Below are positions 24,953-58,848 of a DNA stretch of 64,000 nt, one piece after another. Origin of the DNA: Lysobacterales bacterium (GTDB lineage Bacteria; Pseudomonadota; Gammaproteobacteria; Xanthomonadales; SZUA-5); the NCBI GenBank assembly GCA_022844165.1, contig JALHMH010000001.1, forward strand, positions 224,001 to 288,000, given 5' to 3'. The translations under genes and the position numbers were made by a program. The notes beneath the pieces are model-generated. The model ran no database searches and had not been told where the DNA came from. It saw only the letters and a program-made list of their open reading frames with translations. The first letter of the stretch is position 1; each line of letters starts with the position of its first letter.

Positions 24953-27946
24953 TTACTCAAACGAGTTTGCGAAGACGAACTCAGGTGGAATTTGAGCGTT
25001 GTATCGTCCGCCGGTGTTGAGTAAACCGCTACCACTTTCGCCACCCCAGACGATCATCTCGTTGCCGGTCCATACGGCCGAGTGCCGACTTCTCGCACTT
25101 GGCGATCCGCTGCTTGATATCAATTGCCAACGATCTGTTTCAGGCCGATAGCGCCCTCCACTTGCTAGATAATCAGCACCAAAGCCAGCCCAGATTATCA
25201 CTTCGCTGCCTGTCCATATGGCCGTATGTCCGAACCTCGCACTTGGGGCATTGCCCATTGGCATTGCCTTCCAGCTGATAGTGCCTGGGTCGTAGCGAGC
25301 ACCGTCACCGAAATCAGAACCAACACGTCTGCCGCCCCAAACGACCATCTCGGCACCAGTCCACACGGCGGTGTGATCGTACCGTCCGGCTGGCGCACCG
25401 TTGCTTTGAGTCGCCTGCCAGACATCAGAGCGAGGGTCATAATGTCCACCATCGCCAATGTGAGTGCCGTCACCATAGCCGCCCCAGATGATCATTTCGC
25501 TCCCCGTCCACACTGCAGTGTGCGCGTACCGAGGGCTCGGCGCGCCACTGCTTTGAGTGGCCCGCCAGGTATCCATGCCAGGGTCATAACGTCCGCCACT
25601 GTCGAGAAACGGGCCGCCATAGCCGCCCCAAACAATCATCTCACTGCCAGTCCACACAGCGGTATGTCCGAACCGCTGACTTGGCACGTCAACGCCTTGT
25701 AACGAGCGCCAGCTATTGGTACCAGGGCTGTATCGACCCCCGCTCGCAAGCGCGGAACCGCCCCGACCACCCCAGACGATCATTTCATTGCCGGTCCACA
25801 CGGCGACATGTCCGTACCGCCCGCTTGGCGATCCACTGGTCGGCATAGGCAGCCAGCTGTCGACGCTTGGGATGTAGCGCATGCCGTCGGCAAGGTGAGT
25901 ACTAGCGAGACCACCCCACAAAATCATCTCATTGCCGGTCCACACGGCGGTGTGCAGGCGGCGTGCGTCAGGCGCATCATTCGGCGTCGCTTGCCAGCTA
26001 TTGGTGTCGGGACGGTAGCGTCCGCCGCTGGCCGCGAAGAAACCGTCCGAGCCACCCCAGCCGCCCCAAACGATCATTTCGCTGCCAGTCCATACCGCCG
26101 AGTGGGAGTGCCGCGCGCTCGGCGCACTGCTATTTTGCATATCTTGCCAATCATCGGTCCTCGGGTTGTAGCGCCCGCCGCTGGCGACGAAGGATCCACC
26201 CCAACCACCCCAGACGATCATCTCGCTGCCGGTCCACACAGCGATGTGGCCGGACCGTGCACTTGGCGCACCAATGCTCTGACTCGCCAGCCAGTCATTG
26301 GTGTCCGGACGATACCGTCCGCCGCTCGCGAAATGATCTTCGCCGTCAAAACCACCCCAAACGACCATCTCACTGCCCGTCCATAGAGCCGAATGATGCC
26401 GACGCCCAGATGGCGCACCGATGTTTGGCATCGGCTGCCATCCATTCGTGCGCGGGTTGTAACGTGCGCCGGTTGCCAAATAAGAACCGTCATAACCACC
26501 CCAGACAATCATCTCGTTACCGGTCCACACCGCAGTGTGATTTCGACGTGCCTCAGGCGCATCTGTGCTGGCCATCGCCTGCCAGCTATCCTTGCCTGGG
26601 TCGAAACGCGCCCCGCTGAAAAGAAGAGTATCGCCAGCACCACCCCAAACGATCATCTCGCTACCGGTCCAAACCGCCGAGTGGCGATGCCGGCCACTGG
26701 GCGCCCCGTCGGGCGGCATTGGTCGCCAGCTATCGATGCTCGGGTTATAGCGCCCCCCATCAGCCAAATTCAGGGGGCTGGCGAGGCTTCCTGAGCCGCC
26801 CCACACAATCATCTCGGTACCTGTCCATACCACCGAGTGACCACTCCGCGCCCTCGGCGCACTGTTGGTCTGCGTCTGTTGCCAGCTGTCGGTGGTCGGG
26901 TTGTAACGTCCGCCGACTGCAAGTAGTCCGCTATCGTTTTCGCCACCCCAGATGATCATCTCAGTGCCGGTCCAGACAGCGGTATGAAGCCACCGCCCGT
27001 CCGGCACGTCCTTCATCGATCGCCAACTGCCTGATGCCTCTTTCTCCACAATCAACTCGGTTCCTGTGATCTCGGGCAGCTCCAGTAGCTCAACCACGAC
27101 TCTTGCTGCTGGATGGGACTTGCGTTGATCTGTCCACCAAGCGTCGAAACTCCGCTTGGGCCAGTAGCGAGTGCGTACTTCCAGGCGATCTTGCTGATCC
27201 GACAGTAGCGTCTCCTCGACAAAACCATTTGCAGTCTCGCGAAGAGACGGTTGGTAGAAATCTGCCCAAAGTAGACGTTTTCCAGACAACTGTAACCGCG
27301 AACGCATTTGGCCAAAATCCGCAACGTTGAGATCGACGGTCATTGGCACTGTCGCTGATTCTGGAGCAACTCTTGGCGGAGACGATTCATCCCTTAGCAG
27401 GTACACAATGCGCTGCTCCGCTCCACCGCTGCGTTCAATCAAATCGGCGGCGGCGCCAGCCGCCAGAACCGACTGCGCCGTCGCGCGCAGCGCACGGCGT
27501 TGCCGTTCATCGTAAGCGTATGCCTCGCGCAAACGGCGCGCGACGAGCAGGGGGCGCACCAGGCATTCGCCAATCAACACGGCATCGTTACCCAGCGCCT
27601 GAAATTGCTCGCGAAGGCGATCCGGTGCGCGGGTGCCGAATGCAATGCGGTTAAGTTCCGTTTGAAGCGCATGCCGATCAATGCGCACGTTGTACCACTG
27701 GAAGAGCGCAGCTTCCTGGCGCAGCGCGTCAGTAACTTGCTGGCGGAGAAGCACATCACTGAAAACCGAAGCACGAGCCGGCTTGGGGTGAGGATTCGAT
27801 TCCGGCCAAATCGTGTGCGACCACTTCAAGTCCTCGATGATCGCCGAGCATGCGACGCGTTCGTCGAGCCTCAAAGCAGCAGCATTCGCCGTGCAGCATG
27901 CGATCATCAACATCCAAATCAGGCGGGCCAGCACGTTCGCTTTCAT
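24953..27946 (-). CDS. Secreted Kelch-like repeat protein
   Basis: Signal peptide; 14 repeats of HxAVWTGxEMIVWGG; ends FVFANSFE. Confidence 0.88.
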   Translation of the reverse strand: MKANVLARLIWMLMIACCTANAAALRLDERVACSAIIEDLKWSHTIWPESNPHPKPARASVFSDVLLRQQVTDALRQEAALFQWYNVRIDRHALQTELNRIAFGTRAPDRLREQFQALGNDAVLIGECLVRPLLVARRLREAYAYDERQRRALRATAQSVLAAGAAADLIERSGGAEQRIVYLLRDESSPPRVAPESATVPMTVDLNVADFGQMRSRLQLSGKRLLWADFYQPSLRETANGFVEETLLSDQQDRLEVRTRYWPKRSFDAWWTDQRKSHPAARVVVELLELPEITGTELIVEKEASGSWRSMKDVPDGRWLHTAVWTGTEMIIWGGENDSGLLAVGGRYNPTTDSWQQTQTNSAPRARSGHSVVWTGTEMIVWGGSGSLASPLNLADGGRYNPSIDSWRPMPPDGAPSGRHRHSAVWTGSEMIVWGGAGDTLLFSGARFDPGKDSWQAMASTDAPEARRNHTAVWTGNEMIVWGGYDGSYLATGARYNPRTNGWQPMPNIGAPSGRRHHSALWTGSEMVVWGGFDGEDHFASGGRYRPDTNDWLASQSIGAPSARSGHIAVWTGSEMIVWGGWGGSFVASGGRYNPRTDDWQDMQNSSAPSARHSHSAVWTGSEMIVWGGWGGSDGFFAASGGRYRPDTNSWQATPNDAPDARRLHTAVWTGNEMILWGGLASTHLADGMRYIPSVDSWLPMPTSGSPSGRYGHVAVWTGNEMIVWGGRGGSALASGGRYSPGTNSWRSLQGVDVPSQRFGHTAVWTGSEMIVWGGYGGPFLDSGGRYDPGMDTWRATQSSGAPSPRYAHTAVWTGSEMIIWGGYGDGTHIGDGGHYDPRSDVWQATQSNGAPAGRYDHTAVWTGAEMVVWGGRRVGSDFGDGARYDPGTISWKAMPMGNAPSARFGHTAIWTGSEVIIWAGFGADYLASGGRYRPETDRWQLISSSGSPSARSRHSAVWTGNEMIVWGGESGSGLLNTGGRYNAQIPPEFVFANSFE

Positions 27947-28058
27947 CAAACTATCGCTTCTTCTTATGTATCCGAAATTTTAGTGCGAAATTCTGACAGC
28001 CAAGCGGATCAGCTCACGGCCGGCGTCGACAACGTCTTGGGGTCGACGATATCGTTCT

Positions 28059-30538
28059 TTGCACCATATGTCGCGCGACTATTCGTACGACCGCTTCGCG
28101 CGCTCGGCGAGTGTGCAGACGTTATTGAAAGAGGACAAATACGTCAGCCGCACAACGTACGACAAATACGGGCGCGTGTTCCATTCCTTCGATCCGATCC
28201 GGACAGCACCAGCCCATTCGGCCAATTCCAGGTCTACTCAGCCGATGGATTCCCCATCGGGATTCGGGAAGCTGCGGATGGCACGACGGGTATCTTGTAC
28301 AACGAAGTCCTGTCGCTGACGGCACGGCAACAAGTCCGCCGCGAGCGTTATCACGGTAGCAACAATCTGGTCAGCGAGCGCACGTTCGACGACAACACCG
28401 GGCGCTTGGCGACAATTAGGACGGGCACATTCAGTGGAGGAGTCGTTGGTGGCCAGTTGCAGGATTGGACGACAAACTGGGACAAGAATGGCAATCTGAC
28501 GATGCGCCATGATCGAACCGCTGGCGCGGATTCGAAGGAAGTATTTGGCTACGATGCGCTCGATCGATTGACGACGGTGAACCAGACGATCGGCTCGTCG
28601 CCAGCCATCAACACGCTCACGCTCGCTTACGACCAGCTCGGCAACATCACCATGAAGTCCGGGTCTGGCGCCGCAAATCTTGGCGCCTACGCCTACAACA
28701 GCACCCCCGCGCAAACCGGTTGCGCGCTGCCCGCAGGCCCGCACGCGGTCAGTCTGGTCGCAGGCAAGAGTTACTGTTACGACGAAAACGGTAACAACAC
28801 GCAGGTGCGCAAATTCGGCAGCGCGATCCGTACCATCGCCTATACCGGCTTCGATCTGCCAGAGCAGATCGTGCGTAATGAGCCTACCAGTGAGGGAGCC
28901 ATCCAGGCCGAGGTGAGCTTCAAGTACGCGATCGATCGCAGTGTGTACGAGCGGCTTGACAACGATTCCACCAGGACGCGATACGTCGGCAATGTTGAGT
29001 TCATCGCCGATGGCAGGAGCGATATCGTCAAGCGCTACATTGGCGGCTTTCTGGTCATCACTAAAGTGCTCCAAGGTGGGAACGCCACCTATGACTATTT
29101 GCTGCGCGACAGTTTAGGGAGCATCGATACGGTTGCCAGCGAAACCGGGGCGCTCAGGAGCCGCCAGAGCTTCAATGCGCACGGCCAGCGGCGCAACGCC
29201 GCGACCGCCGGTGGCGGCTGGACCTTGTTGACGCTGCTCCAAGCCGCCGCATTTGCCAACACCACCAGCCCGACCACTCAGGGGTTCACCGGCCATGAGC
29301 AACTTGATCAAGTCGGCCTGGTGCATATGGGCGCACGGCTGTACGATGCCGAGATCGGGCGGTTCCTCCAGGCCGACGACTTCGTCGAACCTGAGGCCAC
29401 GCAGGGGCTGAATCGGTACAGTTATGTACTCAATAATCCGCTGACCGCCACCGATCCGACGGGGAACTTCTCGCTTAGGCAGGCGATCGGGATTGTCATT
29501 GGCGTCGTCGCCGCGATCATCAGCCAGCAGTATTGGGCAATCGACAAACTGATCTCGTTCGGCATCGCCGTTGCTGGCGGATTCGCAAGCGCAGCGATCT
29601 CGACCGGCTCGCTCAAAGCAGGGTTGTGGGGTGCGGTCAGTGCGGCAGTGTTCTGGGGCATTGGCACGCAGTTCTCGAAGGCGTGGGCGTTCGACACGGG
29701 AACTGCTTGCACGCAGCACATGACCCGAGGGGCTGTTGCGGCAAAGGTCGCGGCACACGCAGCGACAGGAGGAACGCTTAGCGTCCTGCAGGGCGGCAAG
29801 TTTGGCCATGGATTCTTCTCCGCTGGATTTACTGAAGCGCTAAGTCCGGCCGTGGGACAGATGGGCGATGGAAAGTCGTTCGGAAGCGTTCTCGGACGTA
29901 CCGCAGCTAGCGCCACAATTGGTGGGACGGTGAGTAAGTTGACCGGTGGGTCGTTCGCAAATGGGGCGGTCACGGCGGCGTTCACGGTTGCGTTCGGAAA
30001 TGCGATCAGCGAAACCATTGCGTTTTCTGGGCAGGAAACGATGGAAGAAATGGTTGATCCGGAAGAAGATATCGGGTCTGGGGAAGCCATATTTAACGAG
30101 GTTGTCACAGAGTTTCGAGATTCCGGAAGCCTCCCGAGTCATATACAAATCGCGTACAGCGACGATTTAGCATACTTCAGAAACAACGAAATAGTGCGTT
30201 TTAGATCAGCGGAAGAGGCGCGGGCAGCGGGCTTTTATGGAGCAGGGATCGCTGGCTATACCCAGACCCGAGTTGTGGATGGGCAAACTCAAGCGCGAAT
30301 CCTGATTTTGAGAGGCGCTGCGCACCCACGAAGTGCACTTGTCGCCATGACTTCTATGGACAGAGCAACTTGGCGACCTATCGTATTCACCAGACATGGC
30401 ATGATGCGTTTTACGATTGCTCATGAGATCCGCCATGCACTTGACTCGTCTCTTGGTAGCTCTTCGGGCTTAGATCATTGGCGTGCGAATGAATACGGCA
30501 GGACCGTGTGCAGGCAACTTGGAGGTGGTTGTGGGTAA
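28059..30538 (+). pseudogene. 5'-truncated, frameshifted Rhs/YD-repeat toxin with a C-terminal HExxH metallopeptidase-like tip
   Basis: YD repeats, GFTGHE...MGARLYD...RYSYVLNNPLTATDPTG core, HEIRH at 30422-30436; frameshift at 28191-28200. Confidence 0.88.
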
Positions 30539-31058
30539 GTATTTTTTCTGTTTGTTTTTGTGCCCCTCGTTTGCGAGTGCTACAACTGAGGCCGCCTTGG
30601 TAAACAAAGATTATCGGCATGCGACGATTGTAGAAGCAGAAGCGACGGAGGCTGTTGACCGGGATTGTTATGTGTTCGAAACAAAGTCCGCTGGCAAGAT
30701 CAGTCTACGGATAATAGGAGTTGGACCAGGGGACAAATTTGTTGTGGTTCTGCCAAGGAGAATTCCGAAGTGTTTCGCGGTCCCGAGAGACCCAAGAGTT
30801 ATTATGCTCGTGACGGTCGATGGGCTTAATTTGGCGACACTGTCGTGCGATGGCTTCGACCCACTCGCTCGTTTTTTGGAGCTGAGTAGCATTGCATTAT
30901 TGGATGACAAAGAGCCGCGCAATTTCAATGGGTGCAATACGTCCAAAATTGTAGATAAGAGAGATGCGATGGCATTTCTATACCGAATGTGGCTGGGTGT
31001 AAACGTTGATGTCGTTGGTGGGAGCGCAATCGAACCTTTCTTACAAACTAAAGAATGA
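30531..31058 (+). CDS. Putative immunity protein (exported)
   Basis: Overlaps the Rhs stop, lower GC, signal-peptide-like N-terminus; role inferred from position. Confidence 0.6.
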   Translation: MGKYFFCLFLCPSFASATTEAALVNKDYRHATIVEAEATEAVDRDCYVFETKSAGKISLRIIGVGPGDKFVVVLPRRIPKCFAVPRDPRVIMLVTVDGLNLATLSCDGFDPLARFLELSSIALLDDKEPRNFNGCNTSKIVDKRDAMAFLYRMWLGVNVDVVGGSAIEPFLQTKE

Positions 31059-31148
31059 GCGACGGCGACAACAATGCGTGGCGCACCTACACAGAATCAT
31101 TTGGTCCCTGTCGGCTCGGAGCACCAAGCTGAAAAAAGAGAAAGCTGA

Positions 31149-31448
31149 AAAAAGAGACACCCAGTTTTCGAAGCGCGCAAGCAGTGGTGGTGGCATCCAG
31201 GGCTACGGATGTCGAAATCGCTGTTCGGAGGAAGGAGGTTTTGAGCGCGCACGCAACGCGCCCAGACGCCAGCGGCGCCAAGAATCCCATGTGAGTTTCT
31301 CAGCCGGTCACGAGGCTCCGGGCGTAGCCGATGCCTTTGAGCCATTTCCGCTTCCACTCTGCGGCCTTGGCTTCGAGTGCTTCCACGCTGGCAACGAAGC
31401 GCCAATATCCAGAGCCGACGCCTTTGACGTGCGCGGTCCGGTAGTTGG
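31149..31448 (-). repeat. Copy 1 of the transposase 3' end plus downstream terminus
   Basis: Near-identical to about 31929-32228; includes the last ~49 codons and the stop at 31300. Confidence 0.92.
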
Positions 31449-31661
31449 AACTGGACTGCGGAGGAACTGGACTGCGGACACCCAGTGCGCCAGGCGAAGC
31501 TGGCGCGATCTAGGTGACAAATCGGAACTAACAATATTTGCCGCCTGTAACGTCTCCGCCGGGGCGATCATTCCGGAGTTTTGGCATCGAACAGCAAGGG
31601 GACATTGTTCGAGACTATTACTACCTGAGGCAGGGTAAGGAAAAAGAGACACCCGGTAAGG

Positions 31662-31874
31662 AAAAAGAGACACCCAGTTTTCGAAGCGCGCGAGCAGTGT
31701 GGTGGCATCTAGGGCTACGGATGTCGAAATCGCTGTTCGGAGGAAGGAGGTTTTGAGCGCGCACGCAACGCCTCCAGACGCCAGCGGCGCCAAAAGTCCC
31801 ATGTGAGTCTCTCAGCCGGTCACAAGGCTCCTGGCATAGCCGATGCCTTTGAGCCACTGCTGTTTCCACTGCGC
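31662..31874 (-). repeat. Copy 2 of the transposase 3' end plus terminus
   Basis: Encodes AQWKQQWLKGIGYARSLVTG*, versus AEWKRKWLKGIGYARSLVTG* in the intact gene. Confidence 0.9.
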
Positions 31875-31879
31875 AAGGG

Positions 31880-31926
31880 AAAAAGAGACACCCAGTTTTC
31901 GAAGCGCGCGAGCAGTGGTGGTGGCA
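31880..31926 (-). repeat. Copy 3 (terminus only)
   Basis: aaaaagagacacccagttttcgaagcgcgcgagcagtggtggtggca. Confidence 0.88.
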
Positions 31927-32079
31927 AAAAAAGAGACACCCAGTTTTCGGAGCGCGCAAGCAGTGGTGGTGGCATCCAGGGCTACGGATGTCGAAATCGC
32001 TGTTCGGAGGAAGGAGTTTCTTGAGCGCGCACGCAACGCCCCCAGACGCCAGCGGCGCCAAGAATCCCATGTGAGTCTC

Positions 32080-33066
32080 TCAGCCGGTCACGAGGCTCCG
32101 GGCGTAGCCGATGCCTTTGAGCCATTTCCGCTTCCACTCTGCGGCTTTGGCTTCGAGCGCTTCCACGCTCGCAACGAAGCGCCAGTAACCTGAGCCGACG
32201 CCTTTGACATGCGCGGTCCAGTAGTTGGTGTCGAGTCCGAGTTTGCTTAACGCCGTCGGCTCACGCTCATCGATCTTGCCGCGTTTGCCGGGCCTGAGTT
32301 GGCGGCCGGTGTAGTCCACCAGCTCAATGTACTGGCGATTGCTCATCGCCAGTCTGGCGAACGCTTGGTCTTTCAACATATCGAATCCAAGCCGAACGCC
32401 GGCAATGGGTTGGATTGGTTCATCCGCTTTGCTGGGATCTTTGCGCAGTTCCTCGGCACGCACCTGCACGCTGGTGTGATCGCTGCTCTCGATGCTGTCG
32501 GCAATCCCTGCTCGAACCGGATTGAGGTCCACGTACGCCATCGCCGCGGCGAGCGCGGCTTCGTCGTCAAGCAACTGAGATTTGAATCGGCCTTCCCAGA
32601 AGCGCCCCGTCACGTCATCTTCTGCGTTCGCCTTGCGCGCGATGTGCTCGTCAAGACAGCGCATAAACCACGAAAGATCCGTGAGCCGATCGCGGCGAGC
32701 CTTAAGTGCAGCTTTGTCAGCGCACAGCGCTGCGATTTTCGCCGTGTTCTGTTCCGCCTCACGCGCCGGGAACAATTGCACCCAACGCCGGGCAATTTCC
32801 TCATCAGACCAATTGCGCGCGGCGGTCGGTTCAATCGACAGCACCACGTGCAGGTGGTTGCTCATCACGGCGTAGCTGTAAACATAGACCGCAAAAATCC
32901 CAGCCAATTGCACAATACGCGAGGCGATCATTGGCTTGCGGTGCTCGTAGTCCACGCCCGTGATCGGATCAATGCCGCACAGCCACGCGCGTCGCACACA
33001 TCGTGCAACGCAGTGATAGAAGGCTTGCTGGCCTTCGGCGACCGTGAGGTGGCGAGCTTGAGTCAT
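32080..33066 (-). CDS. HUH/Y1 tyrosine transposase (IS200/RAYT-like superfamily)
   Basis: YHCVARCVRRAWLCG, YAVMSNHLHVVL (HUH), GRFWEGRFKS, YVDLNPVRAG (catalytic Tyr). Confidence 0.92.
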   Translation of the reverse strand: MTQARHLTVAEGQQAFYHCVARCVRRAWLCGIDPITGVDYEHRKPMIASRIVQLAGIFAVYVYSYAVMSNHLHVVLSIEPTAARNWSDEEIARRWVQLFPAREAEQNTAKIAALCADKAALKARRDRLTDLSWFMRCLDEHIARKANAEDDVTGRFWEGRFKSQLLDDEAALAAAMAYVDLNPVRAGIADSIESSDHTSVQVRAEELRKDPSKADEPIQPIAGVRLGFDMLKDQAFARLAMSNRQYIELVDYTGRQLRPGKRGKIDEREPTALSKLGLDTNYWTAHVKGVGSGYWRFVASVEALEAKAAEWKRKWLKGIGYARSLVTG

Positions 33067-33252
33067 GCGGCGATCATTGCGATGACCGCTGAGCTTGTCT
33101 GTAGGGCGTACGCTGAAAGTGGTGTCGGAATTTTCTGACAGCGAAGGAGTGCCGGCAATGTCTGGCTGGCTCGTCTGCTTTGCTGGGCTTGCCGCGCGGT
33201 TCTTCGGCACGCAATCTTGTCATGCCGAGTTGGCGAGTCGGCGCGCCCTTGC

Positions 33253-33296: not shown

Positions 33297-33371
<75 letters not shown>

Positions 33372-58298: not shown

Positions 58299-58419
58299 TC
58301 GCTAAAACGGTTCGCATTGCTGCCGAGTGCTGTACTTGTCACCTTGCAGGCCGAACGACAACCGATGGAGGAGTCCCGCAGCGTATGCGTGCAGACGTTT
58401 GAACTCCAGGAGAACTTAA

Positions 58420-58848
58420 ATGGCTAAAAAGGTCACCGGCTACATTAAGCTACAAGTTAAGGCTGGCGAGGCGAATCCGTCGCCGCCAGTGGGTCCCGCA
58501 CTCGGCCAACGTGGTGTCAACATCATGGAGTTCTGCAAGCAGTTCAACGCTGCCACGCAGAAGACTGAAAAAGGCACGCCATTGCCGGTGATCATCACCG
58601 TCTACAGCGACCGTTCGTTCACCTTTATCACCAAGACGCCACCGGCGACGATTCTGATCAAGAAGGCGATCGGTCTGGCGAAGGGCAGTTCGCGTCCGAA
58701 TACGGAAAAAGTTGGCAAAGTCACGCGTAAGCAGTTGGAAGACATCGCGACCACCAAGATGCCGGATTTGACGGCAGCCGACCTCGACGCCGCTGTGCGC
58801 ACCATCGCTGGAAGTGCCCGCAGCATGGGCTTGAATGTGGAGATCTGA
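58420..58848 (+). CDS. rplK: 50S ribosomal protein L11
   Basis: [13 protein letters not shown]. Confidence 0.99.

Follow-up and report, generated by a model that had tools for sequence, protein, structure and literature searches.

Among the Y1 transposases, which carry a single catalytic tyrosine, subclass 2.3 of the TnpA-Y1 proteins has been described by the motifs NHYH, WE and YVDLNP, a median length of 325 amino acids and the presence of several copies per genome (Quentin et al. 2018, PMC6006769). The parts of this survey used here also mention an insertion of about 55 residues between beta3 and alphaC and a long two-part C-terminal tail, and they give the subclass as being without recognisable flanking structures (PMC6006769). 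A second group of described systems are the TIRtrons, Y1 genes that are flanked by terminal inverted repeats and not by REP hairpins, the repeats being sometimes clustered (Di Nocera et al. 2013, PMC3733652). The main group of the TIRYTs shares the motif GGGGWSAS, most TIRYTs belong to subclass 2.1 (PMC6006769), and the main text of the TIRtron study contains neither 'target site' nor 'duplication' as words (PMC3733652). Here we describe a Y1/HUH transposase gene and its surroundings in a 64,000-nucleotide (nt) stretch of a Lysobacterales genome (assembly GCA_022844165.1, contig JALHMH010000001.1, positions 224,001 to 288,000), which is called the window and to which all coordinates refer. The locus is one intact copy, copy D (about 31921-33140), of a multi-copy element resembling an insertion sequence (IS) with inverted GACAnCC motifs. 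Outside the 3' end of copy D lies a head-to-tail stack of repeats that are anchored at the element end and are 16, 16, 21, about 54, about 218 and about 307 nt long, and the same stack also holds one foreign module, X, of 171 nt. The features of the locus are as follows.

31126-31157, + strand: perfect tandem duplication of 16 nt (two units), terminus of module A; the second unit starts 14 nt before the GACACCC at 31156
31142-31448, + strand: module A, end-anchored truncated copy with spacer, end module (with GACACCC) and the final 204 nt of the conserved core
31447-31478, + strand: perfect tandem duplication of 16 nt (two units), terminus of module X, adjoining the truncated end of module A
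31463-31633, + strand: module X with spacer, GACACCC and a 7-bp hairpin as in the end modules
31634-31675, + strand: perfect tandem duplication of 21 nt (two units), terminus of module B; the unit contains the whole GACACCC
31655-31872, + strand: module B, end-anchored truncated copy with the end module and the last 114 nt of the core
31873-31927, + strand: module C with the terminal 47 nt of the end module and a 7-nt outer spacer, truncated at GGTGGCA
31928-32024, + strand: subterminal 3' end module of copy D, with the terminal inverted repeat starting at 31935
32025-32079, - strand: conserved core 3' of the stop codon, with a small, weakly supported hairpin (GACGCC-AGC-GGCGCC) at 32045-32059
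32080-33066, - strand: intact open reading frame of a Y1/HUH transposase of 328 amino acids, assigned to TnpA-Y1 subclass 2.3 as discussed below
33107-33145, - strand: 5' end of copy D with the inverted-repeat partner, GGTGTC at 33121-33126 on the + strand

On the + strand, GACACCC starts at 31156, 31477, 31648, 31669, 31887 and 31935, and six such sites in 800 nt are far beyond chance because the heptamer has a genome-wide density of 0.05 per kb per strand. The original prediction, which was made from the letters of the window, had listed these six sites, the three perfect tandem duplications, the intact HUH/Y1 frame at 32080-33066 (-) and the bracketing inverted motifs at 31935 (+) and 33126 (-). 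All of them were located where it had placed them, the duplications as two units each of 16, 16 and 21 nt and the frame as open and containing NHLH and YVDLNP. In all three duplications the second unit begins exactly 14 nt before GACACCC, and their phase is unambiguous. A fourth junction, which had been placed at about 31873 and about 14 nt before the motif, was found between modules B and C (about 31872/31873) at -13/-14. The distance of exactly 14 nt, which had been given as a fixed register, holds for the three duplications of the window and is not universal: junction offsets range over 10-16 (mostly 13-14) in this genome, and the offsets of relatives have their peak at 8-12.

Read in the sense of the transposase gene, the modules finish 14 nt beyond GGGTGTC, begin at differing interior points, and are directly followed by the next module. 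Module A is 95.7% identical to 31928-32230, with core positions 918-1121 at 95.1%, and it includes C-terminal codons of the transposase. Module B is 92.4% identical to the 3' end of copy D, with core positions 1008-1121 at 91.2%, and in module C positions 31880-31926 are 98% identical to 31928-31974. On a small scale the three short duplications follow the same pattern, as copies of the last 16, 16 and 21 nt. No second copy of module X (155-171 nt) was found in the genome or in the related loci that were fetched. The 3' module type of copy D occurs at this locus only in the genome, with 83% identical relatives on contigs C15 and C28. The short duplications were also found in k-mer contigs of the Logan resource: a contig of 331 nt from run X1, which is possibly the sample of origin, covers 31410-31740, and from run X3 a contig of 251 nt covers 31096-31346, neither of the two showing a difference or a gap. 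These contigs cover all three short duplications and none runs across the whole array, so the order of the modules rests on the assembly.

At the opposite end, the conservation of copy D stops at about 33140-33145, and a palindrome, GTCGGAATTTTCTGAC, is present at 33124-33139. The inverted partners are 31935-31954 and 33107-33126, and GACACCACTTTCAGCG (- strand, from 33126) resembles GACACCCAGTTTTCGGAGCG at 31935 also beyond the heptamer.

When the core is defined as 32025-33145 of the window, the genome contains at least 7 near-full copies with 80-93% identity, together with more diverged copies and many fragments, many of these at contig ends. Among the copies on contigs C3, C4, C15, C28, C48 and C54 the core is 90-93% identical. 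The transposase gene has 19 matches in the genome, six of which are full-length open frames with 93-100% identity. Most fragments are anchored at an end of the core, about 10 at the 3' end and about 6 at the 5' end, and a further 7 or so are internal. Every copy carries, outside the core, a subterminal module of about 100 nt that is unalignable between subtypes and always finishes with GGnTGTC and a T/C-rich spacer. A 7-bp hairpin specific to the module type lies about 27-30 nt inward of the motif, and the folding energies of the end modules are no better than those of shuffles (z -0.6 to +0.1, 8 strands). The 5' and 3' module types assort independently, and one 3' type, for example, is found with two different 5' types. 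Several copies have further end modules stacked outside the 5' inverted repeat, and one such stacked 5' junction is common to five copies; the stacked terminus is therefore now part of the mobile unit.

Short perfect tandem repeats adjoin the termini at both ends of many independent copies. The genome (4.68 Mb) contains 172 perfect tandem duplications with a period of 9-60, and 24 of these have a correctly oriented motif 6-16 nt from the junction, where 5.7 are expected from 200,000 random positions. Element segments make up 0.77% of the genome, and 24 of the 172 duplications are located within 400 nt of them, where 1.3 are expected. As a separate observation, the 5' flank of the copy at C28:58607-59725 (C28, about 58400-58600) carries a long purine-rich array of units like GAGGCGCAGAGAGGAGAGGAA with at least 4 repeats, which starts right at the terminus of the copy.

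The same pattern recurs in other genomes. A scan with one genome per species gave 79 loci (L031-L109) with 45-88% protein identity in 50 assemblies, mostly metagenome bins of Lysobacterales, and 600 nt on each side (75 usable 3' flanks and 78 usable 5' flanks) were scanned for perfect repeats. The 3' flanks yielded 55 perfect tandem duplications and the 5' flanks 62. The junction offsets peak at +8 to +11 on the 3' side (20 of the 36 duplications with a nearby motif; 0 in the wrong-orientation control) and at +8 to +12 on the 5' side (22/34; control 1), and some of the remaining negative offsets arise only because the unit itself contains the motif. At least one duplication in register is present at 31 of the 79 loci, and these belong to 25 of the 50 assemblies. 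The starts of the units are concentrated at -4 to +1 from the motif end (36/45). Of 143 flanks, 105 carry motifs facing outward (wrong orientation, 26) and 64 carry at least two of them (wrong orientation, 2); arrays of termini are therefore common. Outside the motif the bases C, GG and TTT, in this order, are conserved, and the conservation declines at about +8, which is near the junction positions. The original prediction had proposed such an inspection of homologue flanks, and with these 79 loci both the motif and a register of offsets were found to recur; the motif is borne out as a conserved end signal, and the repeats begin at a set distance from it at both ends of many independent copies and in many genomes. 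No target-site duplication was detected, as the distribution of direct matches between the 40 nt outside the outermost motifs at the two ends of 35 loci was the same as in permuted pairs, and this lack is expected for HUH enzymes.

More distantly, a homologue with about 40% identity on a Pseudoalteromonas plasmid has GACA[CT]C motifs on the 5' side and GGGTGTC on the 3' side. At this locus (L116, Pseudoalteromonas shioyasakiensis) a segment of about 110 nt with three GACA[CT]C is present twice in tandem about 330 nt before the gene, and two GGGTGTC sites lie downstream of the 40%-identical homologue. The gene is present in all 16 sampled genomes of the bacterial family, with up to 36 matches per genome, and about 8000 homologues were found at E <= 0.001. 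In most genomes of the family the copies cluster with neighbours 1-6 kb apart, and three to four copies in a row were seen on single contigs of the genomes G003, G004, G014 and G016.

By its HUH motif, its single tyrosine and its fold, the encoded protein is a member of the HUH/Y1 superfamily. The HUH motif is NHLH at residues 70-73, with N70, H71 and H73 invariant in 32 aligned homologues, and in the YVDLNP motif (residues 178-183) Y178, V179, D180, L181 and P183 are invariant in the same set. Y178 is the one conserved tyrosine of the catalytic motif, and the WE motif is present as well (W157). The Pfam profile PF01797 (Y1_Tnp) gives 17.4 bits, which is below its cut-off of 23, and a minority of the homologues carry a precomputed match to it; the protein is a divergent long form of Y1 transposase that scores low with this profile. 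With the NCBIfam profile NF047646 (REP_Tyr_transpos), 38.9 bits are reached against a cut-off of 80, and only profile positions 71-141 are matched. A sequence search of the PDB gave no match at E <= 1. In an AlphaFold2 (AF2) model with a pLDDT (predicted local distance difference test) of 81, the best structural match is TnpA-REP of E. coli (4ER8_A; Z 11.1, root-mean-square deviation 3.4 A, 162 of 165 residues aligned), the next one having a Z of 6.2, and Foldseek matches 4ER8 with E 2.4e-3 and probability 1.0. The model has helices at residues 80-150, placed between a strand at 71-78 and another at 161-166, and its helical tail extends to residue 327; this was set beside the published description of subclass 2.3 only. 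Judged by motifs, length and copy number, the protein fits TnpA-Y1 subclass 2.3.

HUH enzymes cut one strand, stay on the 5' phosphate and leave a 3'-OH. TnpA-REP has been found to form a 5'-phosphotyrosine link, and the 3'-OH of an added oligonucleotide can resolve this link and become joined to the cleaved substrate (PMC8266576). For the element described here we propose, with moderate confidence and from the pattern of repeats, that the transposase nicks at a ruler distance, that the 3'-OH of the flank is then extended or joined, and that resealing produces the stacked end-anchored repeats. The transposase would bind the motif and nick the strand 5'-spacer-GACAnCC 8-14 nt outside of it without any fixed cut sequence, and it would stay linked to the 5' phosphate. 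A host polymerase would then extend the 3'-OH of the flank into the element, often only up to the protein-bound motif, or, alternatively, another free 3'-OH would attack the tyrosine link. If the enzyme then joined its linked 5' end back to the 3' end so extended, the terminal nucleotides would be left as a tandem copy, and repetition would generate arrays in which newer termini lie on top of older ones and come to belong to the element. Longer read-through could give modules such as C, B and A, and the joining of a 3'-OH from elsewhere could give stacked foreign termini such as X or the 5' modules of other copies.

Each repeat ends at the terminus, which lies 8-14 nt beyond the motif, and restarts at a variable interior point, and this is what nicking, extension of the flank and resealing would yield. 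The pile-up of restart points at the edge of the motif fits a polymerase that is stopped by a motif-bound protein, and a nick at a set distance with subsequent 3'-OH joining fits the chemistry known from the related TnpA-REP (PMC8266576). A motif-guided cut at a fixed distance is in this way supported indirectly, and the tandemly re-copied tips seem to be scars that mark where the enzyme cuts.

Several points weigh against this proposal. Module A is followed by the unrelated module X, and a purely local process of nicking, extension and resealing cannot explain this A|X junction. The C|D junction lies at -8/-9 and is an exception to the -14 register, and in a reading of the window sequence no conserved dinucleotide was found at the junctions. 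Among copies that are otherwise 90-95% identical, the outer 3-7 nt of the spacer vary, which is awkward should the nick site be the inherited terminus of the element. Microhomology at the junctions is no different from that at other tandem duplications in the genome and does not discriminate against slippage. Furthermore, loci of one assembly and of related assemblies are not independent, and most of the assemblies are metagenome bins. A guide-type pairing of the variable spacer tip with the module interior was inspected by eye only, and nothing consistent was found.

A related possibility is an unequal strand transfer between two cleavage sites on the same strand, in which the enzyme would cut at the terminus as well as at the motif edge and the terminus of one sister or copy would be joined to the motif-edge site of another, so that the spacer of 9-16 nt is duplicated, and is deleted in the reciprocal event. 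Such a reaction would make good sense of the commonest duplications, as both of their boundaries are fixed (starts at -4 to +1 in 36/45, ends at +8 to +12 or +14), and TnpA-REP indeed cuts both 5' and 3' of its REP (PMC8266576). It does not account for units that restart 18-300 nt inside the element, nor for the stacked foreign modules, and we consider it unlikely that strand transfer of this kind explains the locus.

The arrays might also be the remains of an IS nest, with nested or adjacent insertions, truncation by deletions, and short repeats that arose by replication slippage at the T/C-rich ends. Copies are indeed only 1-6 kb apart in most genomes of the family, there are many fragments, and other tandem duplications in the genome are also without microhomology. 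Slippage or random deletion would not produce one register, with the correct side and orientation of a 6-7-nt motif, at both ends and in 25 of 50 assemblies, and if copies had been split, their other halves should lie beyond copy D, where they are not found. Such a decay appears improbable as well.

The original prediction had put forward a candidate system for DNA capture and shuffling that builds a cassette-like array next to a toxin-immunity module, and in its full form this reading takes the system as dedicated, the captured fragments as foreign DNA and the adjacent toxin-immunity genes as functionally linked. The unique module X and the independent assortment of the end-module types among copies would suit such a system, and strand-transfer chemistry like that of TnpA-REP would accept any 3'-OH (PMC8266576). 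Three of the four modules (A, B and C) derive, as truncated copies, from the 3' end of the element itself, and only X is not matched, so that an array of captured DNA is not supported; in addition, there is no coding cargo between the motifs, and the genes between the clustered copies on contig C3 look mutually unrelated. A link to the neighbouring Rhs toxin-type gene found no support either, the synteny with the Rhs gene not being common to the same-genus genome G001, and a capture system is altogether a very remote prospect. That the duplications are assembly artefacts, as might be feared in a draft genome of 59 contigs whose assembly is broken by repeats at many copies, is next to impossible, as contigs of two runs cover all three short duplications exactly and the pattern recurs in 25 other assemblies.

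If the repeats are taken as scars of nicking, extension and resealing, they are natural footprints that define the ends of the element, point to the likely position and strand of the cut, and suggest a nick-primed mechanism by which element ends grow and shuffle. An abundant subclass of long transposases that had been surveyed as being without recognisable ends thereby gains testable substrates, namely a motif of 7 nt with a spacer of 8-14 nt. Also a sizeable share of the perfect tandem duplications of this genome finds an explanation, as 24 of the 172 are located at elements that occupy less than 1% of the genome. One may go further and imagine subclass 2.3 as a 'ruler nickase-ligase' that reads a 7-nt inverted-repeat motif, cuts each strand at a distance measured by the protein, whatever the sequence, and accepts any 3'-OH, with elements that accrete termini and occasionally capture DNA such as X, unlike the peel-and-paste transposition of IS200/IS605. 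This generalisation is conceivable and rather doubtful; if true, it would be a new mode of HUH transposition and possibly a tool for joining single-stranded DNA without sequence requirements.

Just 3' of the transposase stop codon, the window copy, other copies and the loci L031-L109 have a hairpin with a stem that differs by clade (GACGCC/GGCGTC, GGCGCC/GGCGCC or TCCCG/CGGGA). It is followed by a conserved motif, GGGGCGTTG / GTGGGCGAT, and a similar stretch in inverted orientation (ACGCCCTACAGAC) is present in the 5' leader. These stretches may be an inner pair of cis sites, with weak statistics: in a stricter count a perfect stem of at least 5 is present at 9 of 25 loci, compared with about 3.4 in shuffles, and RNAalifold found 0 pairs in a MAFFT alignment of 34 post-stop sequences.

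Beyond the 5' end of the element, the following feature provides context.

33297-33371, + strand: tRNA-Asn(GTT), about 150 nt beyond the 5' end of the element

In a Rfam scan only this tRNA was found. Conservation of the flank in G001 begins about 47 nt upstream of tRNA-Asn. In an empty-site comparison with this genome, the tRNA-Asn flank is about 74% identical and the left flank lies elsewhere, which does not fix the exact boundaries of the element. On the other side of the array, the gene at 28061-30538 (+) encodes an Rhs-type protein. Its RHS repeat-associated core domain (TIGR03696, E 4.8e-19) precedes a variable C-terminal part of about 350 residues in which a HEIRH stretch occurs, and a small open reading frame without family assignment lies downstream at 30483-31058 (+). 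It is plausible that these two form a polymorphic toxin and immunity pair. A frame of 998 codons at 24953-27949 (-) contains about 17 repeats with a recurring WTGxEMIVWGG, as read from the translation, and looks like a beta-propeller-type repeat protein. Elsewhere in the genome, the region of clustered copies on contig C3 (C3:1-24000) contains genes for a large Ig-domain protein, a methyltransferase and an IrrE-like peptidase between the copies, and no common theme was found among the genes there.

How does the element compare with the known systems? With subclass 2.3 it has in common the length (328 amino acids versus a median of 325), the motifs WE and YVDLNP, the multiple copies and homologues in Alteromonadales. 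It differs by one residue in the HUH motif, NHLH versus NHYH, and by having inverted GACAnCC termini, a fixed terminus and terminal repeat arrays, with Lysobacterales as hosts; in the parts of the survey used here the subclass appears without such structures (PMC6006769). Like in the TIRtrons, the Y1 gene is bracketed by terminal inverted repeats, whereas the motif is G(G)nTGTC(C) (GGGTGTC or GGnTGTC) here and GGGGWSAS in the TIRYTs (PMC3733652).

The relation to the RAYT/TnpA-REP proteins is seen in the best structural match (4ER8), in what would be the same HUH chemistry, in a gene bracketed by inverted copies of the putative substrate, and in arrays of it. RAYTs are single domesticated genes, whereas the gene described here is multi-copy and IS-like, and there is no C|T at the junctions, in contrast to the C|T site of TnpA-REP (PMC8266576). 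GTAG-headed REP hairpins were not found at the flanks, and no REP family was seen in the comparisons of repeats and flanks.

With the IS200/IS605 elements (IS608, ISDra2) the element shares the Y1 HUH fold, the lack of a target-site duplication, and, as proposed here, a cleavage site at a set distance from a recognised end feature. At 328 amino acids the protein is twice as long as their TnpA (about 150), it has Y---NP instead of Y---Q, and the element has inverted repeats in place of asymmetric subterminal hairpins, its end modules not being significantly structured.

A working analogy only can be drawn to IS91/ISCR, Helitron and pT181-type systems, which have in common a nick-primed synthesis from a 3'-OH. 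With pT181, DNA synthesis continues for about 10 nt beyond the nick and then terminates. For rolling-circle elements, missed or early termination has been described to give copies with one constant and one variable end (PMC5714925). These systems differ in having enzymes with two tyrosines or enzymes that act as Rep dimers, with a helicase in Helitrons, and in lacking inverted repeats; here a single-tyrosine protein is combined with inverted repeats and with the same scar at both ends.

A literature search, outside of which were ISfinder, supplements and subscription journals, gave no description of such ends or of terminal tandem repeats for subclass 2.3. In kind the element is known, being an insertion sequence that resembles TIRtrons and has a Y1/HUH transposase of subclass 2.3, and what is new, as not found described, are its ends and the scars of terminal repeats that they carry.

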